From positions 664,711 through 728,710 of the forward strand of contig JBAQNJ010000001.1 in assembly GCA_049303675.1 (NCBI GenBank): a stretch of DNA of 64,000 bases. Direction: 5' to 3'. Made by a program: the position numbers and the translations under genes. Shown here in pieces: positions 5,139-59,561 of the stretch. The notes beneath the pieces are model-generated. The model had not been told where the DNA came from. It was given only the letters and a program-made list of their open reading frames with translations, and searched no databases. The DNA is from Microgenomates group bacterium. Its GTDB lineage: Bacteria; Patescibacteriota; Microgenomatia; UBA12405. Position 1 is the first letter of the stretch. Every line of letters starts with the position of its first letter.

Positions 5139-5140
5139 CT

Positions 5141-18941: not shown

Positions 18942-20490
18942 TTATTTTGACCTCCTTTACCACATAATTTCTGTACTCCAACTCAGTTGTTGTACAGCCT
19001 TCGGCATCCACAAACAGTATTTGATTATTAGACTTCAGATCAGATCCCGCATATTTTTTACTCGGACACTTTTCGTTCGAAAATACATAGTTGCTCCTCA
19101 TCCCTCCCAAAAAGTTCACCCATGGTTCTAAACCATCAGGTGAGTTACTCAAATATATTTGAGTGTATTTTGATCCGACCTTGCCCAGCTCTTCTACCAG
19201 CTCTGCCGCACCACCGTTTCTAAAATAACTAGCCAAGCTCATCTTTTGATGAATCAAGTACATGTGAGAAAAATAAATAAAGTTAAGACCATAGAGTGCC
19301 CAGCAACCCAGATAGACTACCTTCCATTTTTTAGAAATTTCACCCATTTGATACATTCCGTAGGCCATCAAAACAATCAAAAAAGGCACCATAAAAATTG
19401 CTCGTTGTAAGTTAGGAGTATCTTCATTGGTAATGGCAGCGGGCAGGGGAGACAACGCCAACAGTGCCACTATCAACAACAGTTCCCTTCTTTGGCCAAC
19501 CCCAAAAAGTCCTATCACCACCAGTACGAATTCAATGTATGTTAGTAGTCCCACATAGGGCACGGTATAACGAATCGGTTTGGCGCTATTTCCCAACAAA
19601 AAATCCGTCCCAAAGTATTCTTTATACTCTTCTGCGAATCTTCTTAGATAAGCCGCCCATCTATTATGGAAAATTCTCGCCCTCAATACCTCGTTTGGTC
19701 CTTCCTCGGTGGGCATTTTAGTAACCTCATAAAGTACTTGGAAATCACTCTTCAAGCTTACTTGCCCCATCCTTCCCCGAGCACTAGGATTAATAAACAT
19801 CAACCCAGTTGTCATCAATATCGCCAGCACCAAATAAATCTGTCGCCATCCCATCCTTGAAGTCAATACCAGTCTATTAAATAACACCACAACTACTACA
19901 AAAACAATTCCCAATACTCGGATATTATGGTAGAAAAAAAATGTCACCACCAGACTCAAATAACACCCCACAGCATATTTAGTCAAGTCCACTTTGATCA
20001 ATTTAATCAAAAAGTACAATGCCCACAATGTTCCAAATACAGCCACTATACTCTCGCTCGTCGATCTACTAGCCACAATATGCCATGGATTTAAAGCCAA
20101 CATCAGCGCACTTATCATCGCCAATCTCTTCTTAGAAGATAGTTGGTATACCAATAGATACAAAGTCACCACTGATAGTCCGCCTACTATAGCAAAAGGC
20201 AATCTTACCGCCAGTACTGTTTTTCCAAACAGCACTAATGACGGTATGATTAGGTAAATGAGTCCTGTTGGCCTAAAATCCCCAAAAGAATCATAATACA
20301 TAGGCAAGTAATTACCTTTATCATCACCACCTGTCTGCAAAATCAAATAGGCATTCCAGCCCGCCTTTACTTCATCAACATGTAATCCATAGGGTACATC
20401 TGCCAATTGATATAATCTCACCACTAGGGCCACTCCCAAAATAAGCAACAACCACCAACTATTTTTGTATCCCACATCGTATAATAACAC
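18883..20490 (-). CDS. ArnT/PMT_2-family GT-C membrane glycosyltransferase
   Basis: Loop motif LHVDEVKAGWNAYLILQTGGDDKG, FGDFRPTGL, VRLPFAIVGG and LNPWHIVASRS are shared with the tandem paralogs at 23992-31975. First codon at 20490 is GTG. An alternative GTG start at 20475 is possible. Convergent 59-nt overlap with 17646..18941. Confidence 0.6.
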   Translation of the reverse strand: MLLYDVGYKNSWWLLLILGVALVVRLYQLADVPYGLHVDEVKAGWNAYLILQTGGDDKGNYLPMYYDSFGDFRPTGLIYLIIPSLVLFGKTVLAVRLPFAIVGGLSVVTLYLLVYQLSSKKRLAMISALMLALNPWHIVASRSTSESIVAVFGTLWALYFLIKLIKVDLTKYAVGCYLSLVVTFFFYHNIRVLGIVFVVVVVLFNRLVLTSRMGWRQIYLVLAILMTTGLMFINPSARGRMGQVSLKSDFQVLYEVTKMPTEEGPNEVLRARIFHNRWAAYLRRFAEEYKEYFGTDFLLGNSAKPIRYTVPYVGLLTYIEFVLVVIGLFGVGQRRELLLIVALLALSPLPAAITNEDTPNLQRAIFMVPFLIVLMAYGMYQMGEISKKWKVVYLGCWALYGLNFIYFSHMYLIHQKMSLASYFRNGGAAELVEELGKVGSKYTQIYLSNSPDGLEPWVNFLGGMRSNYVFSNEKCPSKKYAGSDLKSNNQILFVDAEGCTTTELEYRNYVVKEVKIIRRPDGSPPYYWRQLEDKL

Positions 20491-20495
20491 TATTG

Positions 20496-21650
20496 ATGAA
20501 TCTAAAATCCGTTATCATCTTCGGACTTCTTTTGCGGCTTCTGATTGCCCCCTTTTTTTATCACCCCGACATAAAAAGTCAATATTTTCATTTTCAATTT
20601 CTTAGCCAAGGCGTATATAACATTTATGACTATCTCGAGAAAGACAGGCTTACTCTACCTTATCAAGATACATTCAACTATCAGCCTCTAACCTATTTGG
20701 TTTTTGGCACCATCAATATTTTTCTCTCACCGCTTTATCCGGCTGACTTTTATGTCTGGATCAATGACTGGGGTCCAGACCAAAACAATTATCCCAACCT
20801 ACCAATTTTCCTGTTAATTCTCAAACTACCATACCTATTATTAGATCTCGGCATTGGTTATCTACTCTACCGGAAACTCGGCCAAAAACCTCTACTCCTC
20901 TGGCTATTCAATCCCTTTTCCTTGTACTTTATTTATGTACTAGGTAATTTCGACATTATCCCCGTGTTTCTTACTGTACTTGCTTGGTATTTTTTCGATA
21001 CCCGCAAATCATTATCGTTTTTGTTTTTAGGTATCGCCACTTCGCTCAAACTCTACCCACTCCTCTTTTTACCATTTTTTATATTTTTCAAAACAAAAGA
21101 TATTTCCAAAAACTTGTTTTTCTTCCTGTTGCCAGTAGCTCTTTCTACCCTTCCGTTTCTTAGTTCCAATAGTTTCCTTCATTCTTTTGTTGGCTCAGGA
21201 CTAAGTCAAAAAGTATTCGAGCTAAAATTATATTCTCTTCCCCTGTTCCCCCTCATTTACGGGCTTATTTTTATAAAATATATTATCAGTTCCTCCAAAA
21301 ACATACCCCTTTCCCTGACTTATGTATTTTTACTTTTTATCAGTACAGTTAGTTTTCATGGTCAATGGCTTCTCTGGTTTATACCCTTTATCCTAATATC
21401 TACACATAAATCACTTCCCAAAATATTTTTCTTTGTTGCCACTCTCACCCTCTCTCTCCTATACCTACTGTTAACTGACGACAAATACCTCGTCTGGGGT
21501 CACTTTATACCCGTAGATACACAATTTATTTATCAGCCCTACCCTTACCAATATATTCTCCATCGTTTTCTCATCAACCCTGTTATATTTCAAAATTACC
21601 TTAAAATAATTATCGGTCTCCTGTCAACTTTATTTTTTCTAGTCAAATAA
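20496..21650 (+). CDS. Polytopic membrane protein, GT-C-like (unassigned family)
   Basis: ATG 20496 (the ORF-track start 20493 is TTG). TATAAT at 20480-20485. N-terminus resembles that of 17646..18941. Confidence 0.4.
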   Translation: MNLKSVIIFGLLLRLLIAPFFYHPDIKSQYFHFQFLSQGVYNIYDYLEKDRLTLPYQDTFNYQPLTYLVFGTINIFLSPLYPADFYVWINDWGPDQNNYPNLPIFLLILKLPYLLLDLGIGYLLYRKLGQKPLLLWLFNPFSLYFIYVLGNFDIIPVFLTVLAWYFFDTRKSLSFLFLGIATSLKLYPLLFLPFFIFFKTKDISKNLFFFLLPVALSTLPFLSSNSFLHSFVGSGLSQKVFELKLYSLPLFPLIYGLIFIKYIISSSKNIPLSLTYVFLLFISTVSFHGQWLLWFIPFILISTHKSLPKIFFFVATLTLSLLYLLLTDDKYLVWGHFIPVDTQFIYQPYPYQYILHRFLINPVIFQNYLKIIIGLLSTLFFLVK

Positions 21651-22258
21651 TGAAAAAATATTTCCCTTATTTAATACTCCAGATCCTAATTCTTATCAGC
21701 CTCTTCCTCGTCCTACCTGTCCTTATAATCCGCGACCGTCTCTTTGTCTCGATCGACACCGGCCAAAAATTATTGCCCCTAATTAGCCAGCACCCCTACA
21801 CTCGAACTATTTACAACTCTCCCTTAGGCACAAAATCAATTCAACTTCATCTCAAAAATCCTTCTCTCAAAAACAATAGCCGAATTTTTGTCGATATTCT
21901 CGATACCCAAAATATTCCCCTATCTCAGTTTGTCTTCTCTGGCTCCAATATCGGTGATCCTAGCTGGATAAATCTTGATTTTACCCCACTTAAAAATACT
22001 GATTTTCAGATAAATATTTATACCGACAACCAGAATGATCAATCTCTCTATATTTATACCGATAACTCATCAGTCCCTGATTTTAGATCATTTTACACTA
22101 CCCCCAGTTATCTTCGCCGGTTCACCACCAATTTCAATTACCAAATTCATCAAGCCACCCTCCGCCACCCTCTTCACTCAATATTGTATTGTCTGCTTAT
22201 TATTTACCTGAATATCACTTTATTCCAATCACTCTATGATCGGCAAACTAAAAAATAA
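21650..22258 (+). CDS. Hypothetical bitopic membrane protein with about 140-aa N/S/T/Y-rich exposed domain
   Basis: TAATG overlap start. N-terminal signal-anchor helix. C-terminal helix HSILYCLLIIYLNITLF. No recognisable catalytic motif. Confidence 0.35.
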   Translation: MKKYFPYLILQILILISLFLVLPVLIIRDRLFVSIDTGQKLLPLISQHPYTRTIYNSPLGTKSIQLHLKNPSLKNNSRIFVDILDTQNIPLSQFVFSGSNIGDPSWINLDFTPLKNTDFQINIYTDNQNDQSLYIYTDNSSVPDFRSFYTTPSYLRRFTTNFNYQIHQATLRHPLHSILYCLLIIYLNITLFQSLYDRQTKK

Positions 22259-23969
22259 CTATCTCATTATAATAATTTTGTTTTTCTCCTTTCTCAGCAA
22301 AACAATATTGTTAGGTAGTTTCCCTACCGGTATCAGCAACGACGAACTCCATTTTGTACTCAATGCCAAGTCGGTCTACTACCGCTTTAGCGACATAGCT
22401 CATAGTGGTTGGAACCCACTAACACTATCTACCATTCCCCGAGAGACCAGTTCAGAGCTGCCGTTTTTAATTCTTGCTCCCCTCATTGGTCCGCTACCTA
22501 CCAATCTTTTTACTGCCCGACTTCCTCTGGCAATCCTCGGCACGATTTTTACTTATCTTATTTACCTCATTACCCTAAGATTATTTAAATCCAAACCTAT
22601 CTCTCTACTATCTGCCCTAATTTCTGTTCTAAATCCATGGGCTTTTTATGTCTTTCGTACCTCATTTGATGCCCCGATTGCCCTAACCTTTTTTCTCTGG
22701 GGAATTTATCTAGTCCTTCGCTATTCAGACTCACACTCAGTCTATTCTCTTCTCCCTTTTACCATTGCCTTTTACACCTATATCGGCACCAAACTGATAT
22801 TTATTCCGATTATCTTTGCCACTGTCTATTTTAGTTATCACCGATTAAAACTATCCAAAAAATCCGCTCTCCTTATCTGTTTTGTTTCCCTGATCATTTT
22901 TTCCTTCTACCTTATTAAAACTTTTTCTAGTCACGAAGTCAGGTTGGGGGAACTGATAACCCCCCACAGTCCCATTATTGTCAATGAAGTTATCCAAAAC
23001 CGGACTGCCTCCGTTTCTTCACCCCTTACCCCCCTCATCAACAACCGCTATGTTATATTTCTAAAATTTATTATTACCAAATACCTTACCAACTTTTCAC
23101 CTGATTTGTTTTTCCTTACTGGCGATCACACTTTTATGGTGTCTCTTTGGCAGCATGGCTATTTTTACTATCTCGATGCCCTTCTCTTGTTTATCGGTAT
23201 TGTTTATCTCTTTTCCCGATACCCCTACGCTTTCTTTTATCTCGTTTTTCTCATTGCCCTATCTCCACTCCCTGAGGCTCTTCGCTCCGATAAAATTCCC
23301 GCATATGCATTTCACAGTTGCTTTCAATATCCTTTTATATACATCTTTATTGCCTCTGGCATTTACTACTTATGGACACTCAAAAATAAATATATTTTTC
23401 TATTTCTCCTTACTATCCAAACAATTCAAATTTTCAACCTAGTTGACATCTATTTCAACCGCTATCCAGTATATCAACCAGAAGCTTTTACTTTTTCTCG
23501 TCAGGTCCTCAGTCAATACCTCTGGCTATCCTCACCGCTTGTTCAAAATATCTATGTTATTACCTCCGATCCAGATTCAACTTTCCGCAATTATATTTTT
23601 TATCAAAATCTCTTAAACAAGTCATCGATTGACAATATCTCTAGTCAATATCGTCAGTTCCCCAATCGTAACTATTTTCGCTTAGGTAACATTGTCTTTA
23701 CCAACGATATCAACCATACTCCCCGCCAAGATGCACCAACCGATATTTACATTCTCCAAAAATCACTCAGCCAAAGAGCCCCCCATGAGCCATCAAAATT
23801 TATTAACTTATTAAACACCACCGACACTCTATATACCATCAGCAATGACAAACTCTGTCCGCAGGCCCCCACCACCAACGGCCTACCTCTGCAAACATGG
23901 CAATTCTCAATTTCTCGACTCTCTCCTCCTCAGTTTTGCCAGCTTTATATATCTCCAGACTCTCATTAA
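22236..23969 (+). CDS. ArnT/PMT_2-like GT-C membrane glycosyltransferase
   Basis: Loop GISNDELHFVLNAKS. ARLPLAILGTIFTY. LNPWAFYVFRTSFD. 577 aa. Confidence 0.5.
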   Translation: MIGKLKNNYLIIIILFFSFLSKTILLGSFPTGISNDELHFVLNAKSVYYRFSDIAHSGWNPLTLSTIPRETSSELPFLILAPLIGPLPTNLFTARLPLAILGTIFTYLIYLITLRLFKSKPISLLSALISVLNPWAFYVFRTSFDAPIALTFFLWGIYLVLRYSDSHSVYSLLPFTIAFYTYIGTKLIFIPIIFATVYFSYHRLKLSKKSALLICFVSLIIFSFYLIKTFSSHEVRLGELITPHSPIIVNEVIQNRTASVSSPLTPLINNRYVIFLKFIITKYLTNFSPDLFFLTGDHTFMVSLWQHGYFYYLDALLLFIGIVYLFSRYPYAFFYLVFLIALSPLPEALRSDKIPAYAFHSCFQYPFIYIFIASGIYYLWTLKNKYIFLFLLTIQTIQIFNLVDIYFNRYPVYQPEAFTFSRQVLSQYLWLSSPLVQNIYVITSDPDSTFRNYIFYQNLLNKSSIDNISSQYRQFPNRNYFRLGNIVFTNDINHTPRQDAPTDIYILQKSLSQRAPHEPSKFINLLNTTDTLYTISNDKLCPQAPTTNGLPLQTWQFSISRLSPPQFCQLYISPDSH

Positions 23970-23991
23970 TATAATTAGTATAAAATAGATT

Positions 23992-25644
23992 ATGTACCGT
24001 AATTGGCTCTTAGTCCTAGTTCTTCTTTTTTCCTTTACCATTCGTATTTATAAAATAACCTCCTTACCACCAGCCTTATTCTCAGATGAAGTCGACGCCG
24101 GCTACCAAGCACTAGTATTTAATAATTCCTCTACCGACTATTTTGGCAACCAGTTCCCCGTACATTTTCACTCTTTTTCTGATTGGCGCACCTCCCTCCA
24201 AATATATTCCATTGCTCTTGTCCAAAAAATAGTCGGCACTTCCGCCCTCAACCTCAGCATCCGTCTACCCTCGGCTATTTATGGCACCATCTCTGTATAT
24301 ATATTTTATCTATTATTATCCACCCAGTTTTCCGGCAACATCCCCTTACTGGGTAGTCTGCTTTTGGCCATTAGCCCATGGCATATTATTTATAGCCGCA
24401 CTGGGTTTGAGGTTTCAGGAATGTTTCTCTTTATCTTATTGGGAATATTATTTTGGCAAAAGTTTATCATTTCATCCCACCCAAAATATCTCTATCTGAC
24501 TGTATTTTCATTTTGTCTTACCCCCTATTTTTATAGTACCGCCAAGTTGTTTATCATCATCATCGCCATTTGCATCCTCATTATTTGGTTTCCCCAAATT
24601 ATTAAAATAAAAGCCATCCCCTTAATTATCTCCATTTTTCTCGGATTACTGCTTTTACTACCACTCATCTCCGATACTTTGGCCTCTCGAGCAGGGTTCA
24701 GATTTTCCTACATTAGTATATTTACCACTCCCCACCGCGAGCAAGTTACCGATTCTCTTCGTTACGAAGATGTCCTCCTCAACCATCCCCAACAAATTGG
24801 ACTAGCTACCCCACCTACTTCCTACCTCTTTCACAATAAGTATCAATTAGTCTGGCAAAAATTTGTAGAGAACTATTTTTCCGCATATAGTAGCCAATTT
24901 CTATTTATCAAAGGTGATCAAAACTTACGCCAAGGGTTAGGTGAGAGGGGACTACTCTATTATCTGGATTTTTTCCTAATTCCCCTCGGAATCATCAGTT
25001 TGTTTATTTCCAAAAACAAAAACCGATTATCAGTGTTTTTCCTTTTAATTTTACTCACCGCCCCCATTCCCTTTGCTCTCACCCGAGATTCGGACTCTCC
25101 CCACGCCACCCGACTTTTGCTCATGTTGCCTTCACTTATATATTTTTCTTTCCTAGGTCTAAAAACTATTCTCCAAAAATCTCGAATTTTCTTTATTATT
25201 TGTCTGTCAATATTGACTCTCAACTTCATCACTACCTCGCATTATTACCACTATCACTACCCCCAAATCTCTGCCCGTTCTTGGCATGCGGGTATGCAAT
25301 CAGCAGTTGAAGCCAGTCTTGCCCTACCACCTGCCAACATATATTTTAGTTCCAAGTACGAACCATTTTTGCCTTTCTTTTTGCTCTATTCACATTACTT
25401 ACCCAAAGATCCAAACATTCAGCACCACCTTACCTCGGTCAGCAATCAGTTTTTCGACGGACAGGTCCTCGACAACCAATATTATTTTGGGAATATTAAT
25501 TGGCACTCCGTTCCCCCTACCTCCAACAATCTCTTTGTTATCCCCAGCCAAGAGTTAACCAGTGCCACCGGCTACTCCATCAAAACAAAAATAGCCAAAG
25601 TTTATCAAAACAGCGAAGATTTTTATGTCTTATCCCAAAATTAA
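23992..25644 (+). CDS. ArnT/PMT_2-like GT-C membrane glycosyltransferase
   Basis: FSDEVDAGYQALVF, IRLPSAIYGTISV, ISPWHIIYSRTGFE. TAAAAT 5 nt upstream of the ATG. Confidence 0.55.
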   Translation: MYRNWLLVLVLLFSFTIRIYKITSLPPALFSDEVDAGYQALVFNNSSTDYFGNQFPVHFHSFSDWRTSLQIYSIALVQKIVGTSALNLSIRLPSAIYGTISVYIFYLLLSTQFSGNIPLLGSLLLAISPWHIIYSRTGFEVSGMFLFILLGILFWQKFIISSHPKYLYLTVFSFCLTPYFYSTAKLFIIIIAICILIIWFPQIIKIKAIPLIISIFLGLLLLLPLISDTLASRAGFRFSYISIFTTPHREQVTDSLRYEDVLLNHPQQIGLATPPTSYLFHNKYQLVWQKFVENYFSAYSSQFLFIKGDQNLRQGLGERGLLYYLDFFLIPLGIISLFISKNKNRLSVFFLLILLTAPIPFALTRDSDSPHATRLLLMLPSLIYFSFLGLKTILQKSRIFFIICLSILTLNFITTSHYYHYHYPQISARSWHAGMQSAVEASLALPPANIYFSSKYEPFLPFFLLYSHYLPKDPNIQHHLTSVSNQFFDGQVLDNQYYFGNINWHSVPPTSNNLFVIPSQELTSATGYSIKTKIAKVYQNSEDFYVLSQN

Positions 25645-27220
25645 TTCCTCCACCATTGTCAAAATATTTCTAGTTATAATATTTTTGGTCACAAACTACC
25701 GCTTGCTTCGGCCCGGCATCCTCTCGATGCAGGATGACTTGCATGTTTTTCGACTCCAACAATTTGATCAATGCCTAAATGACGGCCAATTTCCCTGTCG
25801 CTATATTCCCGATGCTGGTCTTGGTTACGGTTCGCCTGTTTTCAATTTTTACCCACCACTTGTTTATTACATTGCCGAAATTTTCCACCAGTTTGGCTTT
25901 AGTTTTGTGGAAAGTATCAAATTACTCTTTATAGTCCCTGGAATTATTCGGCTTATATCAATGTACTTATTAGCCTCGATATTTTTTGGAAATTGGGGGG
26001 GGCTCATTTCTGCCGCTATCTTTTCTCTTGCTCCCTATCAGGCCACCAACACTTTTGTTCGCGGAGCCATTGCTGAAAATCTCGCCATTAGTCTCGCCCC
26101 TTTACTCTTCTACTATCTTCATCAAAAAAATTACAAATTATTCACTTTAGTTTTGTTTTTTATTCTCCTCACTCACCATCTCACTCTAATCTACCTACTA
26201 CCAGCAATCTTAGTTTTTGTTTTAATCCAAAAACAGCTAAATTTCTCTCTGATATTCTCCGGAATATTATCTTTAGTTATGTCTAGTTCTTTTGTCCTGC
26301 CAGCGCTTATCGAAAAAAACCTGACCACCGTCAATACCATGACTCAGGGTTATTTTGATTTTCACAATCACTTTGCCAATCTATATCAAATATTTATATC
26401 GCGTTTTTGGGGATATGGTGCCTCCCAGTGGGGTCCAGTCGACGACATGTCCTTTCAACTAGGTTATCTCCAATGGCTGATTCCCCTTATCATACTGTTA
26501 TATCTATTCACTAAACGTCAGTTATTTTCCTCCAAACTATTTTTGTCTTTTTTCCTAATTGGACTATTTGCCTTGTTCCTAGCCCACCCCAAATCCAATT
26601 TTCTCTGGGAACATATTTTCATTTTGCCCTATTATCAATTCCCCTGGCGTTTTCTTGGACTTGCCACTATTACTTTTGGATTTATCAGCGGCTATCTTAT
26701 CACCCTTATTCCTCCAAAATATGCATCCTCTCTCGCCATCACTATAGTCATTTTGGCCCTATTTTTAAATATTCAATTTTTTAGAGAAGATCTTTGGTTT
26801 TCCCATCTCACCGATAATCAAAAATTATCCGGTGCCTCGCTAGTTCAGCAATCAGGCGCGGGATTACGGGATTATTGGCCCAGCTATGGCCATAATTTTC
26901 CCACCTCCTTCGCCACTCCACGACCCGAAATTACCAAAAAATCAAACCATGTCTCTGGCACTATCACTACTATCCAAACCACAACCCTCACCCTACCCCT
27001 AGTTTATTTCCCTAGCTGGCATCTGACTCTCAATGGTCAAGATTCTCCTTTCACTCTTGACCCTGAATTAGGACTAATCCAAATAAATTTACCCTCCGGC
27101 CAGTCTACTTTCGAGCTCAATTTTAGCAACACCCCAATCAGAACTATTGCCAACTGGCTTTCAATATTTGGCTTTACAATCTATATAATATATATTGTCC
27201 GTGACAAAATACATCGATAA
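25625..27220 (+). CDS. PTPS_related-type GT-C-like membrane protein (paralog of 5141..6835)
   Basis: QDDLHVFRLQQFDQCLNDGQFPCRYIPDAGLGYGSPVFNFYPPLVYY aligns residue-for-residue with the 5141 product. Confidence 0.5.
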   Translation: MSYPKINSSTIVKIFLVIIFLVTNYRLLRPGILSMQDDLHVFRLQQFDQCLNDGQFPCRYIPDAGLGYGSPVFNFYPPLVYYIAEIFHQFGFSFVESIKLLFIVPGIIRLISMYLLASIFFGNWGGLISAAIFSLAPYQATNTFVRGAIAENLAISLAPLLFYYLHQKNYKLFTLVLFFILLTHHLTLIYLLPAILVFVLIQKQLNFSLIFSGILSLVMSSSFVLPALIEKNLTTVNTMTQGYFDFHNHFANLYQIFISRFWGYGASQWGPVDDMSFQLGYLQWLIPLIILLYLFTKRQLFSSKLFLSFFLIGLFALFLAHPKSNFLWEHIFILPYYQFPWRFLGLATITFGFISGYLITLIPPKYASSLAITIVILALFLNIQFFREDLWFSHLTDNQKLSGASLVQQSGAGLRDYWPSYGHNFPTSFATPRPEITKKSNHVSGTITTIQTTTLTLPLVYFPSWHLTLNGQDSPFTLDPELGLIQINLPSGQSTFELNFSNTPIRTIANWLSIFGFTIYIIYIVRDKIHR

Positions 27221-28805
27221 AATCACCTTTTGGACAGTTCTGCTATTGGCCATATTTTTTCGGCTCTATCAGCTATCCTCTCTTCCCTCTGGTTTAAACT
27301 GGGACGAAATTTCTCATGGTTACAATTCCTATTCTATTTTGCACACCGGCAAGGATCAATGGGGGATTAGCTATCCCATTTTTAATTTTCGAGCCTATGG
27401 CGATTTTCCCACTGTCCTCAACATGTATCTCACTATTCCCTTTATTAAATTGTTTGGATTAAATTCACTCACCATCAGATTACCCAACGCTCTAGTTTCA
27501 ATTATATTTGTCGTCTACAGCTATCTATTTGCCAAAATCACCTTCAAAAAAAATAGTATGGCATTACTTTCAATGACCCTAGCCGCCTTTCTACCATGGA
27601 GTTTCTTTGTCTCTCGGGGTGTTTTTCAATCCACCTTCTCCATGACCCTTATTCTCATGGGATTATTTCATTTCTACAAATCATTTAAAAATCCGTATCA
27701 CTTTCTTCTTTCCTTACTTTTTTTTGGCTTATCACTTTATAGTTATCACAATGCGCGCATAATAATTCCGGTACTTTTACCATTTATCATAGTCTATTAT
27801 CGATTCCAACTTTTTCAATCAGTTTATAAAAACAAAAAAATTGTTTTCACTAGCATACTCATTATTTTATTTTTATTTATCCCCAATCTGGTCAATTTAT
27901 TTTCACCTACCTCCTTTGCTAGGAACCGCTGGGTAGGAATTATTAATCCCAACTCCATCAATTTACTCAATAATCGTCGTAATGAATTTGTCGGCCCAGC
28001 AATTATCAATCGACTCCTCAACAATCGCCCTCTTTATTTTATACAAACCCTAACTCTAAATTATTTGAATCTTTTCAACCCTATTCCCTTATTTTTCTCA
28101 GGTACCCAAAACCAGCAGTTATCAGTACCCGACATGGGAATAATTTTTCCCATACTTCTACCTTTTTTATATATTGGTTTATACCTTTCCTTAAAAAATA
28201 AAATATATCTACCGATACTATTCATCTTACTAATTTCCCTGCTCCCTGCCGCCCTTACTGTCGGGGACTATCCTGTTCTCCGAGCCAGTAGCGCCCTCAT
28301 CTTTTATATTTTATTTATAACTCTCGGCCTATCACAGCTCAAAAATATGCCCTCGATTATACCCATATTAACAATTTTTATATTTTTTATTTTGTATTGG
28401 TCAAAATATAAAAACTACAATTATCACTATTCTTCAACATGGCAATACGGCTATCAGTCAGTTGTCGACTATATCAAAAAAAATTATAACCAGTATGATC
28501 AGATAGTCATCACCAAAAAATACGGTGAACCCCACGAGTTTGTCTTGTTTTACTGGCCCTGGGACCCAGCCAAATACCAGAGTGATACCCATCTTTCCTC
28601 AAACTTTCATTCAGATTGGTACTGGGTAGACAGCTTTGATAAATTTATCTTCAAAAATGATTGGGAAATAAAAAATTCCCCATATAACAATAAAACCCTC
28701 CTGATTACCAGCCCAGGAAACTATCCTTTAGCAAATTCTCATTATCAAAAATCAATCAATTTCCTCAATCAAACTCCCGCATTTGATATCATCAGCTATG
28801 AATAA
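27195..28805 (+). CDS. ArnT/PMT_2-like GT-C membrane glycosyltransferase
   Basis: NWDEISHGYNSYSILHTGKDQWG, AYGDFPT, IRLPNALVSIIFV, LPWSFFVSRGVFQ. Confidence 0.55.
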   Translation: MSVTKYIDKITFWTVLLLAIFFRLYQLSSLPSGLNWDEISHGYNSYSILHTGKDQWGISYPIFNFRAYGDFPTVLNMYLTIPFIKLFGLNSLTIRLPNALVSIIFVVYSYLFAKITFKKNSMALLSMTLAAFLPWSFFVSRGVFQSTFSMTLILMGLFHFYKSFKNPYHFLLSLLFFGLSLYSYHNARIIIPVLLPFIIVYYRFQLFQSVYKNKKIVFTSILIILFLFIPNLVNLFSPTSFARNRWVGIINPNSINLLNNRRNEFVGPAIINRLLNNRPLYFIQTLTLNYLNLFNPIPLFFSGTQNQQLSVPDMGIIFPILLPFLYIGLYLSLKNKIYLPILFILLISLLPAALTVGDYPVLRASSALIFYILFITLGLSQLKNMPSIIPILTIFIFFILYWSKYKNYNYHYSSTWQYGYQSVVDYIKKNYNQYDQIVITKKYGEPHEFVLFYWPWDPAKYQSDTHLSSNFHSDWYWVDSFDKFIFKNDWEIKNSPYNNKTLLITSPGNYPLANSHYQKSINFLNQTPAFDIISYE

Positions 28806-30384
28806 GTGGTGGCTCATAATTATTACCCTCATCGCTCTTAGTCTTAGGCTTGCCTATATCAACTACCCTCCTCTTCTCTGGGACGAAGCCTCCATTGGCT
28901 ACAACGCCTACAGTCTCATCCATACCGCCCGCGATGAATACGGGCAATTGCTTCCTCTTATATTTAAATCTTTTGGCGATTACAAGCCCGGACTATACAT
29001 CTACCTTGCCACCCCTTTTATCGCTCTATTTGGACTAAATACTCTCGCCCTTAGGCTGCCCTCAATTATTCTGGGTTCTTTACTACCCCTACTTTTATAT
29101 TTGGTAGTCAAAAAACTATCCCCTCACCACAAATTATTACCTTTATTTTGTGCCATTCTTTTGGCGTTTAACCCATGGAACATCCACTTCTCCCGAGGCG
29201 CTTGGGAGACCAATGTCATGTTATTTGAACTCCTTTTAGGGACGTATTTGTTTATTTCTAAAAAGTTTACCTTTGCCTCGATCATCCTAGCTCTCTCGTT
29301 TTATACCTATCAGGGCGGCAAACTCTTTGCTCCACTACTTTTACTTATTCTAGTTTTTAGTTTCTATCAAACCCTAGACAAGAAAAAATATCTCCAGCTA
29401 ATTTTGCCTTTTGTCATCATCTCCCTACCACTTATCTATGGCCTAATTACCCAAAACGACTCCAACCGTCTCAATGTCTTTGCTCTTTGGAATTACCATC
29501 GACCGGCTGCCGATTCACAACAGATAACTATAGAATCCTCTAATCTAAACTACTCTGTCTTCCACCACGAGCTAATATTTTTCACCCGCAATTTTTTGAC
29601 TAGATATTTCAACTATTTTTCCTTCCGATTTCTCACCTTCGAAGGTGATTGGCAAATTACTCGCCACTCTGCCCCTTATATTGGAGTCCTCTTGTATCCC
29701 TCAATATTTTTTTTCTTTCTTGGCCTAGTTCGCACCCAGCTCCAAAAATATTCCAAACTAGATATAATTTTTAGCCTCTGGTTACTGACTGCCCCTTTGC
29801 TCGGGGCTCTTACCCGAGACATCATTCAACCTGTCCGTACCCTGCCTTTGTCCATTCCCCTTATTTACTTTACCGCTGTCGGTATTATATTTGCCCTAGA
29901 AAAGATTCCCCGCAAATTTATTTTTTATTTTAACTTTTTTCTTTTGACTTTATATTCTTTATCCCTTGTCACCTATCTTGAGCTCTATTATCAACATATG
30001 GTCAAGGTCAATCCTTCTCACTGGCTCTTTGGCTATCAGTCTGCTATCCAATATGTAATCGCCAACCAAACCGGCAAAACAGTCACTTTCACCGATTTTT
30101 ACGGACAACCGTATATTTATTATCTATATTATTCCCAATACCCACCTTTAAAATATCAATCCCAAGCAAAATTGATTAGCAGTGGTATTGATACTGGTAG
30201 GATAACCCAAATCGATAATCTAAAGTTTGAAGTTCCCAATTTTAATTCCCAAAAAAACCTGCCTCACCAATTACTCATCCTTTCCCACGATGACGCCCTT
30301 AGGCAGGGGATTGATATGAAAGTATTGACCCCACTTAGTCCTATCAATGGTTATTCCACTTTTTATGCCTACCAAACTAACTAA
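28783..30384 (+). CDS. ArnT/PMT_2-like GT-C membrane glycosyltransferase
   Basis: LWDEASIGYNAYSLIHTARDEYG, FKSFGDYKPG, LRLPSIILGS, FNPWNIHFSRGAWE. Closest paralog of 30347..31975. Confidence 0.55.
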   Translation: MISSAMNKWWLIIITLIALSLRLAYINYPPLLWDEASIGYNAYSLIHTARDEYGQLLPLIFKSFGDYKPGLYIYLATPFIALFGLNTLALRLPSIILGSLLPLLLYLVVKKLSPHHKLLPLFCAILLAFNPWNIHFSRGAWETNVMLFELLLGTYLFISKKFTFASIILALSFYTYQGGKLFAPLLLLILVFSFYQTLDKKKYLQLILPFVIISLPLIYGLITQNDSNRLNVFALWNYHRPAADSQQITIESSNLNYSVFHHELIFFTRNFLTRYFNYFSFRFLTFEGDWQITRHSAPYIGVLLYPSIFFFFLGLVRTQLQKYSKLDIIFSLWLLTAPLLGALTRDIIQPVRTLPLSIPLIYFTAVGIIFALEKIPRKFIFYFNFFLLTLYSLSLVTYLELYYQHMVKVNPSHWLFGYQSAIQYVIANQTGKTVTFTDFYGQPYIYYLYYSQYPPLKYQSQAKLISSGIDTGRITQIDNLKFEVPNFNSQKNLPHQLLILSHDDALRQGIDMKVLTPLSPINGYSTFYAYQTN

Positions 30385-31975
30385 AATTCTCCTAGCTGCC
30401 ATCCTCATTTTTGCCATCATTATTCGGGGGTACAAAATCGATGTTTTACCCTCACTCAATCCCGACGAAGCTGCCCTCGGCTACAATGCCTACTCTCTCC
30501 TCCAAACCGGCAAAGACGAACATGGCACCCAGTGGCCGATTCACTTCAAATCATTTGGCGATTACAAACCAGGCGGTTATGTTTATCTGGCCCTGCCAGT
30601 TATCAAAGTTCTAGGTCTTACACCCCTTGCCGTTCGTCTCCCCAACCTTATCTTTTCAATACTAACAATATACATATTATATAAACTTGTTTTACTTTTA
30701 ACTTTCGACTTTCAACTGTCAACATTGACCGCCTTCGTTTTGGCGGTCAACCCCTGGCACATCCACTTTTCCCGAGGTGCGTGGGAATCTTCTACTGCCT
30801 TGTTTTTTATAATACTAGGTATCTATTTGTTCTATTCATACATCATAAATCGCAAATCATATATCTTTTTACTATCATGTTTGTCCTTTGTTGCTTCTTT
30901 GTATATCTATCATTCCGCTCGTCTCGTCACCCCACTCATAGTCCTATTTTTACTATTTTCCAATTTGAAATTTATCGTTAATAATTTGAAATTAATCCTC
31001 TTACCCACACTTATCGCTATCTTATTCACCATCCCCGTATTTATTTCCTTTATAAATAATGGTGGTACCGCTCGGCTAGGTGGCGTTGGCTTAACTGCCG
31101 ACAGAGGACCACTTTCCCGATCCGAAGAGCTACTCAACCAACATCCCCAGTTTAACTATTTTGATCGTATCGTTCACAACAAAAGAATCTTATATTTACT
31201 CTCTTGGGCTCAAAAATACACTTCCCACTATGATGCTAACTTTTTATTTATCAATGGTGATGATGTCCCTCGCAGTCGTTCACCAGAAATGGGCCAACTC
31301 TATCTACTTGAACTTCCACTATTTATCTTAGGCGTTATCTACCTCCTAAAGTTCTCTAGCTCCAACATTCTTCTCCCTCTCACTACAGCCCTTTTTCTCT
31401 TTTCACCCATCGCTTCATCACTTACCTTTCAGGCTCCCTCAGCCCTCCGTGCCCTACCTCTGGTTATCCCTTTTTCCATCACCATCGCTGCCGGACTACT
31501 ATACTTTGCCAAGATCACCCAAAGATATTTTCCTCACAATCTGTTTCTGATTACCATCACCTATATATTTTCCTTGTTCTATTTTGTTGATGCCTATTTT
31601 GTTCATGCTCCCCAACGCTATCCTTTTGCTTGGAACACCGGATTTTCTCAGGAGATGAAGTTTGTTGAATCCCAAAAATCAAAATATGAAAATATCTATT
31701 TTACTGATTCCTATGACCAGCCCTACATTTTATACTTATTTTATAATGCCTACCCACCGCTCAAAATTCAAACACAGATTAGTCTAACCTCTCCTGATAA
31801 ATACGGATTTTCTACTGTCAACACTATCGACAACATTCATTTTGGTAAAATAGACTGGGATACTATCCCTAGCCATAGCTTAGTTATCGCCGGCTACGAA
31901 AAAATACCCGCGGTCCCTCTTGCCTCGGTCGTCCAAGCTGGCGGCACCATTGGCTTTAGAATATATGAAAAATAA
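30347..31975 (+). CDS. ArnT/PMT_2-like GT-C membrane glycosyltransferase
   Basis: NPDEAALGYNAYSLLQTGKDEHG, FKSFGDYKPGG, VRLPNLIFSI, VNPWHIHFSRGAWE. Confidence 0.55.
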   Translation: MVIPLFMPTKLTKILLAAILIFAIIIRGYKIDVLPSLNPDEAALGYNAYSLLQTGKDEHGTQWPIHFKSFGDYKPGGYVYLALPVIKVLGLTPLAVRLPNLIFSILTIYILYKLVLLLTFDFQLSTLTAFVLAVNPWHIHFSRGAWESSTALFFIILGIYLFYSYIINRKSYIFLLSCLSFVASLYIYHSARLVTPLIVLFLLFSNLKFIVNNLKLILLPTLIAILFTIPVFISFINNGGTARLGGVGLTADRGPLSRSEELLNQHPQFNYFDRIVHNKRILYLLSWAQKYTSHYDANFLFINGDDVPRSRSPEMGQLYLLELPLFILGVIYLLKFSSSNILLPLTTALFLFSPIASSLTFQAPSALRALPLVIPFSITIAAGLLYFAKITQRYFPHNLFLITITYIFSLFYFVDAYFVHAPQRYPFAWNTGFSQEMKFVESQKSKYENIYFTDSYDQPYILYLFYNAYPPLKIQTQISLTSPDKYGFSTVNTIDNIHFGKIDWDTIPSHSLVIAGYEKIPAVPLASVVQAGGTIGFRIYEK

Positions 31976-32876
31976 GCAAAAACTATCTATCGTAATAGCC
32001 ACTTACAACGAGGCTGACAACATTAAACGCTGCCTCGATAGCATCAATGATATTGCCGACGAAATTATTATTGTTGATGGTGAGTCCAGAGATACTACTG
32101 TAGAAATTGCCAAAAAATACTCAAAAGTCACCATAATTACCACTACCAATAAGCCAAATTTTCATATTAATAAGCAAATTGGAATTGAGGCTTGTAAAAA
32201 CGAATGGATTTTTTTGCTTGATGCAGATGAAGAAGTTAGTCCACAATTAGCCAAAGAAATCACCAATTTACTCAGTCAAACATCTTCACAAATTACCCTA
32301 TCTCAAAGTAAAATAAAAAACAAACTACTATTACGTCATCAAAAAATAGTCGAATTAAGAGATGGAAACTACGACAAAAAAGACTCAGAATATACCGCTT
32401 TTTTTGTGCCTCGCCTGAATTATTTTTTAGGTAAATTTATTCGCTATGGTGGTGTCTATCCCGATGGTCAAGTTAGACTCTTTCAAAAAAGTTGTTCCCG
32501 ACAGCCAGCCAAGGATGTTCACGAACAAATTAGTACCGATGGTCGTGTCGGCTGGCTACAGTCAGATCTTTACCACTATGCTGATCCAACATTTTCTCGC
32601 TATCTATTGAGAAATAATCGATATACCTCAAACATTGCCACCGAACTTCAATCAAAAAATATCAAATTTAACTTCTCCAACTTTATTTTATATTTTTTTA
32701 TAAAACCTATTTACTGGTTCTTATTAACATATTTTAGACACAAAGGACTTTTAGACGGCTTTGCTGGGTTTGTATTTTCTTTTTACTCCTCACTACGCTT
32801 TCCCATTGCCTATATAAAGTATTATGAATTAGCAAAAACAAACGAAACCATTTCCTTAAAAAAAGATTGGGATTAA
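31965..32876 (+). CDS. Glycosyltransferase family 2 with C-terminal membrane helices
   Basis: ATG 31965. LSIVIATYNEADNIKRCL...IIIVDGESRDTT...LLDADEEV. Hydrophobic C-terminus. Confidence 0.65.
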   Translation: MKNKQKLSIVIATYNEADNIKRCLDSINDIADEIIIVDGESRDTTVEIAKKYSKVTIITTTNKPNFHINKQIGIEACKNEWIFLLDADEEVSPQLAKEITNLLSQTSSQITLSQSKIKNKLLLRHQKIVELRDGNYDKKDSEYTAFFVPRLNYFLGKFIRYGGVYPDGQVRLFQKSCSRQPAKDVHEQISTDGRVGWLQSDLYHYADPTFSRYLLRNNRYTSNIATELQSKNIKFNFSNFILYFFIKPIYWFLLTYFRHKGLLDGFAGFVFSFYSSLRFPIAYIKYYELAKTNETISLKKDWD

Positions 32877-32877
32877 T

Positions 32878-33945
32878 ATGCCAAAAAAATATAATATAGC
32901 CATTGATGTTTCTCCACTTTCCGATGGCAACTCCACTCGTGGCGTCGGTTATTACACCAAAAATCTAGTAGCCGCACTCCATTCCGAGGTCAAAACCAAT
33001 CCACTTTACAAAAACTTTAGTATCCATTTAATTCAAAATTCTAAATTTGAAATTAAAAATTTTGATCTGGTTCATTATCCCTACTTCGATCCCTTTTTCC
33101 TCACCCTACCACCCAAAAAAAATATTCCTCAAATAATTACCATTCATGATCTTATCCCTCTAGAGTTTCCCCAACATTTTCCTGTCGGTATCCGCGGCTA
33201 TATAAAATGGCTAATTCAAAAATATCGTGCCAAAATGTCCGATTATATAATTACCGTCTCCCACCATTCCAAATATGCTATTTCTGATATTCTCCGATAT
33301 CCTGTAGACCAAATATATGTTACCTATGAAGGAGCTAACTCTAGTTTCCAGCCAATATCCGACAAAAATCAACTTTCTCTTATAAAGAAAAAATATTCTC
33401 TCCCTGACAAATTTATCTTGTATGTCGGCGACATAAATTGGAACAAAAATATCCGAACCTTAGTCAACGCCTGTCAAAAACTGAATTACCACCTAATTAT
33501 TGTTGGTTCTTCTGCCACCAAAAAAGTCACCCATCATCCCTGGACCCAAGATATCCTCTGGCTTCAGGGACAAAACTCACCCTATATCCATTGTTTAGGT
33601 TTTATCTCTGATCTGGAACTGCCCTATATCTACAATCTAGCTACCATTTATTGTCAACCATCGTTTGCTGAAGGTTTTGGATTACCACTAATTGAAGCGA
33701 TGCAATCCGGTACTCCCATTGTTTATAGTCGATCCACCAGTTTGCCAGAACTAGCAGGCGACTGCGGCCTCAGCTTTGACCCACTTGATCAAATCTCCTT
33801 AGAAAAATCCCTCACCAGACTTTGGAATAACCCCACTTTGCGTCAGCAGCAAACTAAAAAAGGACTCCATCAATCCCTTCAATTTAAGTGGCAGTATACC
33901 GCCATTCAAACTTTAGCTCTTTATGATTTAGCTCTTACCTCATGA
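32878..33945 (+). CDS. Glycosyltransferase family 4
   Basis: EGFGLPLIEAMQSGTPIV E-x7-E motif. 355 aa. Confidence 0.7.
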   Translation: MPKKYNIAIDVSPLSDGNSTRGVGYYTKNLVAALHSEVKTNPLYKNFSIHLIQNSKFEIKNFDLVHYPYFDPFFLTLPPKKNIPQIITIHDLIPLEFPQHFPVGIRGYIKWLIQKYRAKMSDYIITVSHHSKYAISDILRYPVDQIYVTYEGANSSFQPISDKNQLSLIKKKYSLPDKFILYVGDINWNKNIRTLVNACQKLNYHLIIVGSSATKKVTHHPWTQDILWLQGQNSPYIHCLGFISDLELPYIYNLATIYCQPSFAEGFGLPLIEAMQSGTPIVYSRSTSLPELAGDCGLSFDPLDQISLEKSLTRLWNNPTLRQQQTKKGLHQSLQFKWQYTAIQTLALYDLALTS

Positions 33946-51107: not shown

Positions 51108-51112
51108 AGTCC

Positions 51113-51134
51113 ATTTTAGCAAAAAAATGCTAAA
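51113..51134. promoter_or_regulatory. Candidate -10 box (TAAAAT, - strand) overlapped by perfect inverted repeat TTTAGCA-N6-TGCTAAA (51115-51134); possible operator
   Basis: Read directly. The inverted-repeat arms are 7 bp and the spacer is A6. Confidence 0.3.
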
Positions 51135-51464
51135 CTCATCCAGCTGAAAGATATACTCCAACCACTAATACTCACCGTTTATCGACTCGAAGGCTATAGA
51201 TTTTTAGCCACCAGAACTAGCCACCCGTCTTTTTCTCAAATAATCCTTCGGCCACTAGACCAGAAAGATTCGTTTTTGACCCATCAGGCAGTCACCTTCT
51301 TACACAATAATCTCTGTGATCAATGTATTTGTTCTTCACATGTTCGCCTCGGTGACAAAGCACTCCATTGCCAAAATCCCCAAAGACATCCTAGTTATCG
51401 GACCAATCTTGATTTAAATTGTTACCTGCCTCAAAACATAGCCGAATATCGTCTCCACTGGTAA

Positions 51465-53181: not shown

Positions 53182-53182
53182 C

Positions 53183-53698: not shown

Positions 53699-53740
53699 GC
53701 TTATCCAGTCATCGTGATAAACAATTATATAAAATATTCC

Positions 53741-59521: not shown

Positions 59522-59561
59522 CACCAATTATACATTCCTCTGCGTGATATCATCGTATATT

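Follow-up and report, generated by a model that had tools for sequence, protein, structure and literature searches.

The locus considered here lies on a 998-kb contig of a Shapirobacteria-like MAG of a CPR/Microgenomates bacterium with a tiny genome and raises the question of what six membrane-protein genes, arranged back to back within the 64 kb of DNA analysed (the window), are for. They encode anciently diverged membrane glycosyltransferases, which most likely place sugars onto a surface polymer outside the membrane. The array shows paralogy, a GT-C fold and conserved motifs, is syntenic between species and lies close to donor-synthase-like genes; it is real and conserved in the lineage, yet of an already known kind of enzyme system.

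Gene organisation of the array

The ORF positions of the six array genes (22236, 23992, 25625, 27195, 28783 and 30347, all on the + strand) and of a related gene, 18883(-), were confirmed. NCBI, where the array genes already bear the name "glycosyltransferase family 39", differs from the window ORFs only at three start codons, those of A3 (27195..28805, NCBI start 27201), A4 (28783..30384, NCBI start 28798) and A5 (30347..31975, NCBI start 30365). The array is part of a run of 17 same-strand genes (20496-41543) which overlap or lie at most 30 nt apart, a spacing that suggests a single transcription unit. Terminator-like sites showed no excess (18 versus 12.9 ± 3.4 by chance), and the array shows neither pseudogenes nor mobile elements. 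The run starts with a GT87-like polytopic protein of 385 aa and a 202-aa protein with two TM segments (20493..22258, +), the GT87 match of 22.9 bits being below the Pfam gathering score of 25; this pair was found again at loci L028, L035, L044, L048, L050, L059 and L081.

Paralogy, motifs and fold

The preliminary description proposed that 22236, 23992, 27195, 28783 and 30347 are tandem paralogs (A1 to A5) and that their shared blocks recur in 18883..20490 (-), here A0, which is transcribed divergently from the array. Both proposals were borne out by all-versus-all BLASTP: within these six proteins (family A), 15/15 pairs are significant (46.6-237 bits, E 5e-8 to 3e-74, 22-35% identity), including A4 with A5 (35% identity, E 3e-74) and A0 with A5 (E 5e-50). 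The most divergent member, A1 (22236..23969, 577 aa), matches A0 at E 5e-23 and the remaining members at E 5e-8 to 5e-17; it too retains the DE, RLP and PW..R motifs. Since 300 shuffled versions stay at or below 29.3 bits, far under the real pairs, the likeness is not compositional. The loop motifs quoted earlier (NDELHF, SDEVDAGYQ, WDEISHGYNSY, WDEASIGYNAY and PDEAALGYNAY) fall in register in the alignment, where D36-E37, R95-L96-P97, P134-W135 and R141 are invariant in all six members. The D-E pair, directly after TM1, is invariant in 66 homologs as well. The FGD(Y/F)(K/R)P block is less general than described, with its strict form in 28783, 30347 and 18883 and degenerate forms in 22236, 23992 and 27195. 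Judged by sequence, none of the paralogs looks like a dead enzyme.

Profile searches supported the PMT_2 assignment for part of the set. Against a Pfam gathering score of 26.1, PMT_2 matched A2 (23992..25644, 550 aa; 30.5 bits), 27195 (37.4), 18883 (37.2) and, elsewhere in the window, 3678 (47.1) and 1445 (29.1), whereas 28783 (24.0), 30347 (23.4), 25625 (22.7) and 61441 (23.3) fell below it and 22236 had no PMT_2 match, or any other match in Pfam. 18883 also passed the gathering score of Pfam PMT (24.0 bits versus 22.7). No NCBIfam model reached its cut-off when the array genes were searched, and a profile search against PDB sequences detected no solved GT-C relative.

The fold was examined with AF2 models of 30347 (pLDDT 90.3, pTM 0.91) and 25625 (pLDDT 86.5, pTM 0.90). 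At E ≤ 1e-3, both match only GT-C enzymes (PglB/STT3, ArnT, PMT, ALG9/12 and Emb/Aft), at a probability of 1.00, with transporters appearing only at E > 0.06 and a TM of about 0.1. The GT-C nature claimed for these genes is thus agreed upon by HMM matches, alignment and two confident models, with no transporter family indicated. The 30347 model favours no family among PglB, ArnT, PMT and ALG9 (TM 0.45-0.52, 12-15% identity). Its nearly even distance to PglB, ArnT and PMT, together with the negative profile search for solved GT-C enzymes, makes 'ArnT/PMT_2-like' a fold-level label only. The WWDxG oligosaccharyltransferase signature and the MIR domain are not present in the array proteins.

The sixth array gene, 25625..27220 (531 aa), encodes a PTPS_related/YfhO-like GT-C (family B) and had correctly been set apart as PTPS-related, its orthologs carrying PF10131/PF09586; its relation to family A is marginal in profile comparison (E 1e-3). 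Its outer loop 1 contains QDD, its C-terminal part forms a beta-sandwich and a transmembrane helix ends the chain; its Foldseek matches include ArnT 5f15, STT3, AftD and PglB. The beta-sandwich ectodomain gave weak local Foldseek matches to glycoside-hydrolase beta-sandwich domains; ectodomains of this kind bind the glycan acceptor in AftD and GT136 enzymes (PMC8035078, PMC11127046).

Conservation across the lineage

The array is not specific to one strain: among species-level loci with at least 8.5 kb of upstream sequence, 38/46 have at least five family A/B genes. A5, the most conserved member, has 336 relatives in species-representative genomes, and its homologs within Shapirobacteria are 55-71% identical. 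A4 lies directly upstream of A5 at 61/65 loci and A3-A4 at 44/58. The gene order A3-A4-A5-GT2-GT4-GT2-GT2-rSAM is conserved, and that of the four glycosyltransferases downstream of A5 is kept at nearly all loci. The upstream part is variable, with A1, A2, B and at least five further orthogroups present or absent by species; the orthogroup of A1 comprises 8 proteins from 80 loci. The window paralogs all belong to separate orthogroups, out of about 11, and the duplications are old, as judged from identities of 50-69% between orthologs and 22-35% between paralogs. Ortholog identity declines from A5 (69%) through A2/B (50%) to A1 (about 40%), and identities to the orthologs at locus L002 are 65% for A4, 64% for A3 and 51% for the syntenic A2. 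Outer loop 1, the long loop 241-320 and the C-terminal domain are 88%, 72% and 60% identical among A5 orthologs and 33%, 21% and 20% identical between paralogs. This pattern, in which loops and C-terminal domain are kept within orthogroups and have diverged between paralogs, would fit a distinct acceptor specificity for each paralog.

Other GT-C and glycan genes in the window

At least seven GT-C enzymes of one family had been proposed for the window. The expansion is in fact larger, with twelve well-supported GT-C genes (1445, 3678, 5141, 14531, 18883, 22236, 23992, 25625, 27195, 28783, 30347 and 49389), two candidates under the Pfam threshold (20493 and 61441) and two further PMT_2-like genes at or just beyond the left window edge. 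One of the latter is the truncated ORF 59-1111, which had been among four polytopic proteins in the window with no family match. With family A, 3678, 1445 and 61441 have only the Pfam family in common and no BLAST-level similarity. The DE loop reported for 3678 was seen as GDEAIY. Of two suggested DD variants, 61441..63564 (+), a 707-aa polytopic GT-C candidate, has WDDQ, but 1445..2914 (-), a PMT_2 GT-C, has DQD in outer loop 1. DD is also found in outer loop 1 of 49389..51161 (-), a PMT_2 GT-C (32.5 bits) whose C-terminal TPR repeats match many TPR families, and 14531..16891 (+) encodes a YfhO-family GT-C of 786 aa (40.7 bits; YfhO gathering score 28.5).

Genes for glycan assembly surround these enzymes, with 13 GT2 and 6 GT4 proteins in the window. 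Directly downstream of A5, four cytoplasmic Leloir glycosyltransferases assigned by Pfam (GT2, GT4, GT2, GT2; 31920..35712, +) include 33942-34754, a candidate polyprenyl-phosphate-sugar synthase that, among solved proteins, is most closely related to DPMS 5mlz (E 4.7e-12), ArnC and GtrB; it matches NCBIfam PpgS over its full length (52 bits) and shares 81% identity with the ortholog at L002. A second module (2945..6835, +) consists of a GtrB-like GT2 (2945-3706; best solved relatives GtrB 5eke, E 4.5e-9, DPMS and ArnC), the PMT_2 GT-C 3678-5138 and a second family B protein (5141-6835), which is 36% identical to 25625 and matches PTPS_related weakly (17.6 bits). Neither candidate donor synthase has the C-terminal TM helices of GtrB/DPMS, and a membrane partner would therefore be needed. 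Export candidates are a Wzx-type flippase (6808..8253, +; Polysacc_synt_3, E 1.9e-42) and an ABC-2 permease with an ABC ATPase, separated by a NYN-domain gene (52381..54472, +; Pfam ABC2_membrane, NYN and ABC_tran). An LCP (LytR_cpsA_psr) ligase is encoded about 7 kb left of the window. No initiating phosphoglycosyltransferase, Wzy polymerase, O-antigen ligase or GtrA-type flippase was recognisable in the 64-kb window.

Alternative functions

The reading favoured here, at a probability of roughly 0.55, is that a wall glycopolymer is built or decorated outside the membrane by several GT-C enzymes, which probably have one or a few polyprenyl-phosphate-sugar donors in common. The paralogs may instead be protein O-glycosyltransferases of PMT/GT39 or TMTC type, each with its own targets among secreted or surface proteins (for example pilins, S-layer proteins or adhesins) or its own sequence contexts within them; the GT2/GT4 enzymes would then serve a separate glycan. 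DE in loop 1 is a PMT-type motif (Pmt1/2) and is the one found in family A; 18883 passes the PMT gathering score, the NCBI label is GT39 and Pmt4 and Pmt1/2 are among the structural matches. PF02366 (PMT, the family of protein O-mannosyltransferases) is present in many A5 orthologs, and a PMT_2 protein with TPR repeats is encoded in the cluster (49389); both observations fit protein acceptors and speak against a polymer. However, 30347 scores under the PMT threshold, PMT does not match four of the paralogs at all, the 30347 model is no nearer to PMT than to PglB or ArnT, and the array sits closely among polysaccharide-type genes (GT2/GT4 and exporters, with the LCP ligase nearby), with which it is also syntenic. 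To our knowledge, bacteria with characterised PMTs (Actinobacteria) have one copy only. Protein O-glycosylation is considered less likely than the polymer reading.

A lower probability still is assigned to the array being a diversity cassette, in which alternative, partly redundant decorators vary a surface antigen, for example for phage evasion or host matching, and a subset matters in each strain. The species-dependent upstream part and its declining ortholog identity agree with such a role, which overlaps with the periphery of the wall-glycopolymer reading, but the A3-A4-A5 core occurs almost everywhere, in one fixed order and with high conservation, and the array keeps its catalytic motifs in all members and shows neither pseudogenes nor mobile elements. 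Improbable to a further degree is an ArnT-like role, in which the head group of a membrane lipid or glycolipid is modified and not a polymer or protein. It would accord with the JGI label of homologs ('4-amino-4-deoxy-L-arabinose transferase-like'), with ArnT 5f15 being among the best structural matches of 30347 (TMq 0.52) and with the ArnC-like GT2 nearby, yet there is no sequence-level relation to ArnT, at least six head-group specificities are hard to rationalise, and LCP ligase and exporters indicate a wall polymer. CPR bacteria are also generally held to be devoid of LPS and lipid A. That the shared blocks are a compositional or topological coincidence of hydrophobic membrane proteins such as transporters might be suggested by 3/6 genes being below the Pfam gathering score or unmatched and by the NCBIfam result, but is effectively refuted by Foldseek of both models, the shuffled controls and the invariant polar residues in register.

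Relation to known systems and proposed mechanism

The closest known systems are those of multi-component (three-component) transmembrane glycosylation in Gram-positive bacteria, including CsbB/GtcA/YfhO, GtlA/GtlB, Lactococcus CsdAB/CD/EF and GacI/J/K/L (PMC8035078). As is proposed for this locus, they pair a GT-A making the polyprenyl-phosphate-sugar with a polytopic GT-C of PMT_2/YfhO type. An outer loop of the GT-C bears an acidic motif, its gene lies within a wall-polysaccharide cluster, and the third component may be a flippase of Wzx type. Whereas they are serotype-specific and use one GT-A/GT-C pair per modification, the array has six GT-C genes in one overlapping run, is conserved over the whole class and belongs to a window with at least 14 GT-C genes, few donor-synthase candidates and no GtrA flippase found.

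Tandem GT-C paralogs at one locus are also known from mycobacteria (aftA-embC-embA-embB, and the PPM-dependent mannosyltransferases PimE and MptA/B/C), where several GT-C enzymes share one lipid-linked donor (DPA for AftA-EmbCAB, PPM for MptA/B/C) and act serially outside the membrane on a wall-linked heteroglycan, as is proposed here; an LCP ligase attaches the product, and an LCP ligase gene lies near the window. Emb and Aft match the array models in structure, yet not in sequence; the array proteins, of about 540 aa, lack the large carbohydrate-binding C-terminal domains of Emb, with one small beta-sandwich in family B, and the polymer is putative in this CPR bacterium of roughly 1 Mb. In the eukaryotic lumen, the diverged GT-C paralogs ALG3/9/12 (Dol-P-Man) and ALG6/8/10 (Dol-P-Glc) likewise use the same lipid-phosphate-sugar, each extending a lipid-linked glycan by a single defined residue, and the structural matches include ALG9 and ALG12; unlike the array, their genes are not clustered, and their acceptor is a Dol-PP-oligosaccharide for N-glycosylation. 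The oligosaccharyltransferase signature WWDxG is absent here. ArnT (GT83), PMT (GT39) and PglB/STT3 (GT66) have in common with the array the GT-C class A fold, an acidic catalytic motif opening outer loop 1, a C-terminal extracytoplasmic domain and weak Pfam PMT_2 and PMT matches, but are too distant for detection by sequence profile, and lipid A is an improbable acceptor in this organism.

By analogy with the known mechanism of transmembrane glycosylation (PMC8035078), the six array genes would encode active, functionally distinct GT-C enzymes that have their catalytic acidic pair, D-E or D-D, in outer loop 1 and would take sugar from a polyprenyl-phosphate-sugar at the outer face of the cytoplasmic membrane. 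The donor lipid would be made at the inner face by the GT2s 33942-34754 and 2945-3706 and then flipped. The acceptor may be a cell-wall glycopolymer or a lipid-linked glycan, with a core that the GT2/GT4 enzymes of the cluster assemble in the cytoplasm and that the Wzx-like flippase or the ABC-2 transporter exports. With one or a few donors in common, the paralogs would address different acceptor positions or linkages and therefore act in series or in parallel, extending and decorating the polymer. A3-A4-A5 would thus provide a lineage-wide core structure, and A1, A2, B and the further orthogroups its variable peripheral decoration.

Paralogy and enzyme class of the array genes

The six ORFs previously reported between positions 22236 and 31975 are present as described. 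Five of them, starting at 22236, 23992, 27195, 28783 and 30347 on the + strand (A1 to A5), had been proposed to be paralogs of one another and of the gene at 18883-20490 on the - strand (A0), and together they form a single family, family A, in which all 15 pairwise BLASTP comparisons were significant (46.6-237 bits, 22-35% identity). A compositional artefact was ruled out by a control of 300 shuffled sequences, the top score of which was 29.3 bits. The conserved blocks listed in the preliminary description were retained in part: the DE, R-L-P and P-W/R blocks are invariant in family A, whereas the strict FGD(Y/F)(K/R)P block is found in three members only. The family A alignment contains 21 invariant columns, including D36-E37 right after TM1, R95-L96-P97, P134-W135 and R141, and the D-E pair in the first loop is invariant across the six paralogs and 66 homologs. 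The gene at 25625-27220(+), located amid the array, lies outside family A and is probably PTPS-related, in agreement with its initial description; it is 36% identical to 5141-6835, with which it forms family B, and many of its orthologs at 47-52% identity have precomputed matches to PF10131 and/or PF09586. In the first-loop acidic motif of family B, D37 is invariant and D38 nearly so, and profile-profile comparison of the two families gave a marginal match (E 1e-3) confined to the PMT_2 core. According to the positive-inside rule, the acidic motif is predicted to be on the extracytoplasmic side.

The proposed assignment to PMT_2 (PF13231; gathering score 26.1 bits) could be verified directly for 23992 (30.5 bits), 27195 (37.4 bits) and 18883 (37.2 bits), whereas 28783 (24.0 bits), 30347 (23.4 bits) and 25625 (22.7 bits) scored just under the threshold and 22236 had no match; membership of these others is deduced from paralogy. 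With PMT (PF02366; gathering score 22.7 bits), 18883 scored above threshold (24.0 bits), 30347 below it (20.3 bits) and the other four had no match, and a precomputed PF02366 match is carried by many A5 orthologs. PF10131 did not match 25625 and matched its paralog 5141 weakly (17.6 bits, under the gathering score of 26.4). No NCBIfam model reached its cut-off, the only matches being weak ones to Agl23 (39 bits vs a cut-off of 126). The family A profile extends to 26,641 clusters (50% identity) at E ≤ 1e-3 and to 6,013 at E ≤ 1e-30.

In the hydropathy scan, TM segments extend to about residue 420 and the last ~120 aa form a soluble tail, concordant with the AF2 secondary structure. This fits the architecture expected of GT-C class A, with about 11-13 TM helices and a C-terminal domain predicted to be extracytoplasmic. 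Profile searches of PDB sequences with 6- and 66-sequence alignments found no GT-C enzyme, and the relationship therefore had to rest on fold. The AlphaFold model of 30347, built from 66 sequences (pLDDT 90.3, pTM 0.91), gave 32 Foldseek matches at E ≤ 1e-3, all of which are GT-C enzymes: PglB, STT3, AglB, ALG9/12, ArnT, Pmt4, EmbA/B/C and DPY19 (TM 0.45-0.52, 12-15% identity). The 25625 model (pLDDT 86.5, pTM 0.90) gave eight matches at E ≤ 1e-3, again all GT-C and including ArnT, STT3, AftD and PglB; the protein ends in a TM helix, preceded by a C-terminal beta-sandwich (residues 437-500) that locally and weakly resembles glycoside-hydrolase beta-sandwich domains. Since the significant structure matches are to GT-C enzymes only, the six array genes are assigned to the class A GT-C glycosyltransferases. 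The significant fold matches of 30347 and 25625 refute the transporter reading, transporters appearing among the 30347 matches only at E > 0.06 and TM of about 0.1.

None of the six can be assigned more narrowly to ArnT, PMT or the oligosaccharyltransferases. A GT83 ArnT identity was rejected because ArnT was not detected in PDB sequences even at E ≤ 10, leaving a likeness at the level of fold (TM 0.47-0.52 and 12-13% identity for the 30347 model). Among the GT66 oligosaccharyltransferases (PglB, STT3, AglB), PglB and STT3 were the top fold matches, but the WW[DN]xG motif occurs in 0 of the 9 GT-C proteins checked, and this reading was dropped for lack of the motif.

Conservation and organization of the array

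Synteny and one-to-one orthology of the array extend to another Shapirobacteria genome (GCA_016188545.1), with identities of 51% for A2, 50% for the family B gene, 64% for A3, 65% for A4 and 69% for A5. Genes downstream of the array match their orthologs at 56-82% identity; the paralogs share only 25-35%. A conservation scan using one genome per species returned 336 A5 relatives, from which 80 loci were kept. A4 is immediately upstream of A5 in 61 of 65 loci and A3-A4 in 44 of 58, and at least five family A/B genes are present in 38 of the 46 loci having at least 8.5 kb of upstream sequence, the most frequent orders being A2-B-A3-A4-A5 and A1-A2-B-A3-A4-A5. The 281 family A proteins cluster into about 11 orthogroups, with the six window paralogs in six different ones. 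The duplications are therefore old, as judged from the high ortholog and low paralog identity, the synteny and the separate orthogroups. Across the lineage the core A3-A4-A5-GT2-GT4-GT2-GT2-rSAM is maintained, with variation at the array's upstream end. Conservation also differs by region: identity among A5 orthologs vs among paralogs is 88% vs 33% in outer loop 1, 72% vs 21% in the long loop 241-320 and 60% vs 20% in the C-terminal domain. This pattern points to specialisation of the paralogs, and would be expected if the paralogs have their catalytic chemistry in common but each recognises substrates of its own.

The same Shapirobacteria-type syntenic array (55-64% identity) was also found in records titled 'uncultured Gammaproteobacteria' or 'Candidatus Methanoperedens' (loci L006, L010, L011, L015, L031 and many others), MAG labels which are probably wrong.

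According to the NCBI gene calls, which place the start codon of the 542-aa ORF 30347 18 nt further downstream, 17 same-strand genes at 20496-41543 overlap or are at most 30 nt apart. A promoter/terminator scan returned counts near shuffle expectation, with no excess of terminator-like sites, and intergenic space is absent, so that a polycistronic unit across this run can reasonably be proposed. The start codons of the divergent genes 18883-20490(-) and 20493-21650(+) are at most ~20 nt apart (20475-20496), leaving no intergenic room for two promoters. The window also displays an extreme compositional asymmetry between strands, with a GC skew of about -0.3 along the entire + strand. At third codon positions the skew is -0.48 in + strand genes and +0.49, on their own coding strand, in - strand genes; the bias therefore goes with the DNA strand, irrespective of transcription. 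Some 80% of the coding sequence is on the C-rich strand, the reverse of the usual G-rich leading-strand bias.

The surrounding glycan locus

The window corresponds to the reverse strand of JBAQFH010000001.1 (998,417 bp), a contig of the Microgenomates (CPR/Patescibacteria) assembly GCA_049287145.1. It is densely coding, being fully tiled by 55 ORFs of at least 120 aa, and nearly all of it is a glycan-biosynthesis locus. It encodes ~19 Leloir glycosyltransferases (13 GT2 and 6 GT4), a Wzx-like flippase (6808-8253), an ABC-2 permease (52381-53181) and ATPase (53714-54472), four SAM methyltransferases, five B12-binding radical SAM paralogs, an epimerase and many polytopic membrane proteins. An NYN-domain (RNase-like) gene (53153-53698) sits between the ABC-2 permease and ATPase genes. 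To the left of the window (flanking sequence L085, 11804-20308) are two further PMT_2-like genes, including the truncated ORF 59-1111 at the window's left side, and a GT2 gene, followed by FtsEX, an M23 peptidase and an LCP (LytR_cpsA_psr) ligase. To the right (flanking sequence L084, 12071-22124), more than 10 kb contains additional GT2, GT4, Acyl_transf_3, methyltransferase and DegT genes. In total, the locus covers at least 78 kb of the 998-kb contig and encodes ~16 GT-C enzymes.

The radical SAM paralogs are at 35743-37221, 37860-39422, 43360-44847(-), 44856-46418 and 47998-49392(-), inside the glycan cluster. Conservation within the locus is highest for the first two (82% identity to their orthologs at L002, the locus compared for synteny), and the best NCBIfam match of these paralogs is HpnJ (136.6 bits, far under cut-off). 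These enzymes may produce an unusual (methylated or rearranged) sugar. The membrane proteins (polytopic or bitopic) at 8241-9866, 17514-18941, 57722-59527(-) and 21650-22258 have no Pfam or NCBIfam match; a homolog of 17514 is kept beside the array in many genomes, and the 202-aa protein at 21650-22258 recurs alongside a GT87-like gene. Three of these were left out of the GT-C count, as hhalign found nothing between family A and 8241 or 57722 (E about 0.2) and a marginal match of 17514 to the PMT_2 core (E 9e-4). The gene at 49389-51161(-) encodes a PMT_2 GT-C enzyme with fused C-terminal TPR repeats, a layout resembling that of eukaryotic TMTC protein O-mannosyltransferases, which hints at a protein acceptor for that member.

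Proposed function of the array

Two GT2 genes are candidate polyprenyl-phosphate-sugar synthases. The gene at 33942-34754 is 81% identical to its L002 ortholog, making it the best-conserved glycosyltransferase gene of the cluster, exceeded only by the two radical SAM genes at 82%; its nearest solved relatives are archaeal dolichol-phosphate-mannose synthase, ArnC and GtrB, and the NCBIfam model PpgS aligned full-length. The other, at 2945-3706, is directly upstream of the PMT_2 gene 3678-5138 and has GtrB, DPMS and ArnC as nearest solved relatives. Both are without TM helices. A GT-A synthase-like gene, its activity predicted, is thereby encoded with GT-C enzymes, as in multi-component transmembrane glycosylation systems, and the adjoining DPMS/GtrB/ArnC-like GT2 genes are circumstantial evidence for a polyprenyl-phosphate-sugar as GT-C donor. 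No GtrA-like flippase gene was found in the window; a Wzx-like candidate is present at 6808-8253.

The best-supported explanation is a multi-component transmembrane glycosylation pathway, a known mechanism (PMC8035078, PMC11127046), with an unusually large GT-C component and with donor, acceptor, membrane topology, serial action and co-transcription all predicted. The many cytoplasmic GT2/GT4 enzymes would synthesise a polymer or lipid-linked core for export via the Wzx-like or ABC-2 system. Outside the membrane, the GT-C paralogs would then extend or decorate the exported glycan, and its final attachment to peptidoglycan might be carried out by the nearby LCP enzyme. The few donor synthases relative to the many GT-C enzymes suggest that several enzymes share each donor and differ in acceptor or linkage, as do the enzymes of the ALG3/9/12 series and the mycobacterial PPM- and DPA-dependent enzymes. 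The nearest known tandem arrangement is the mycobacterial aftA-embCAB locus.

The main alternative, that the GT-C paralogs perform protein O-glycosylation, is unlikely. It is supported by the NCBI GT39 label, the PMT matches in A5 orthologs and 18883, the PMT-type DE motif and the PMT_2+TPR protein within the cluster, but the 30347 model resembles PMT no more than PglB or ArnT, and the array's conserved gene neighbourhood is of a polysaccharide type. The reading as a purely antigenic-diversity cassette fits in part, agreeing with the variable upstream end of the array and conflicting with its conserved core. Lipid modification of the ArnT type is improbable in a lineage that is not known to have lipid A.

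Within the transmembrane glycosylation pathway, a more specific role is possible and is put forward tentatively: the A3-A4-A5 core and its variable partners may constitute an ALG- or Emb-like extracytoplasmic assembly line, maybe a hetero-oligomeric complex produced from translationally coupled genes, which would build the main heteroglycan linked to the wall in Shapirobacteria and related Microgenomates. If so, this glycan would be a lineage-defining CPR envelope polymer with a role comparable to that of mycobacterial arabinogalactan/LAM, at least one new CAZy GT-C family would be founded on these enzymes, and more than 8% of a 1-Mb genome would be spent on one structure, possibly the host-cell interface.

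The enzyme class and general mechanism are already known, and the genes are annotated GT39 by NCBI. In the searchable literature, nothing relevant was found on GT39, PMT_2 or GT-C expansions in CPR, Patescibacteria, Microgenomates or Shapirobacteria, the nearest being PIM genes in Saccharibacteria, nor any description of this conserved tandem array, of such a GT-C gene density in a CPR genome or of the family A GT-C subfamily. Sequence searches detect no solved or characterised relative of this subfamily and, given its size, characterising a single member would allow thousands of proteins to be annotated. The array genes are concrete candidates for heterologous expression, cryo-EM and glycan chemistry. 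The envelope of CPR bacteria (Patescibacteria) is almost uncharacterised and their genomes measure about 1 Mb, yet at least 78 kb is devoted here to one glycan locus. Being ancient and conserved across the class, the GT-C array marks a core envelope structure and not a strain-specific antigen, and provides an entry point to CPR envelope biology.
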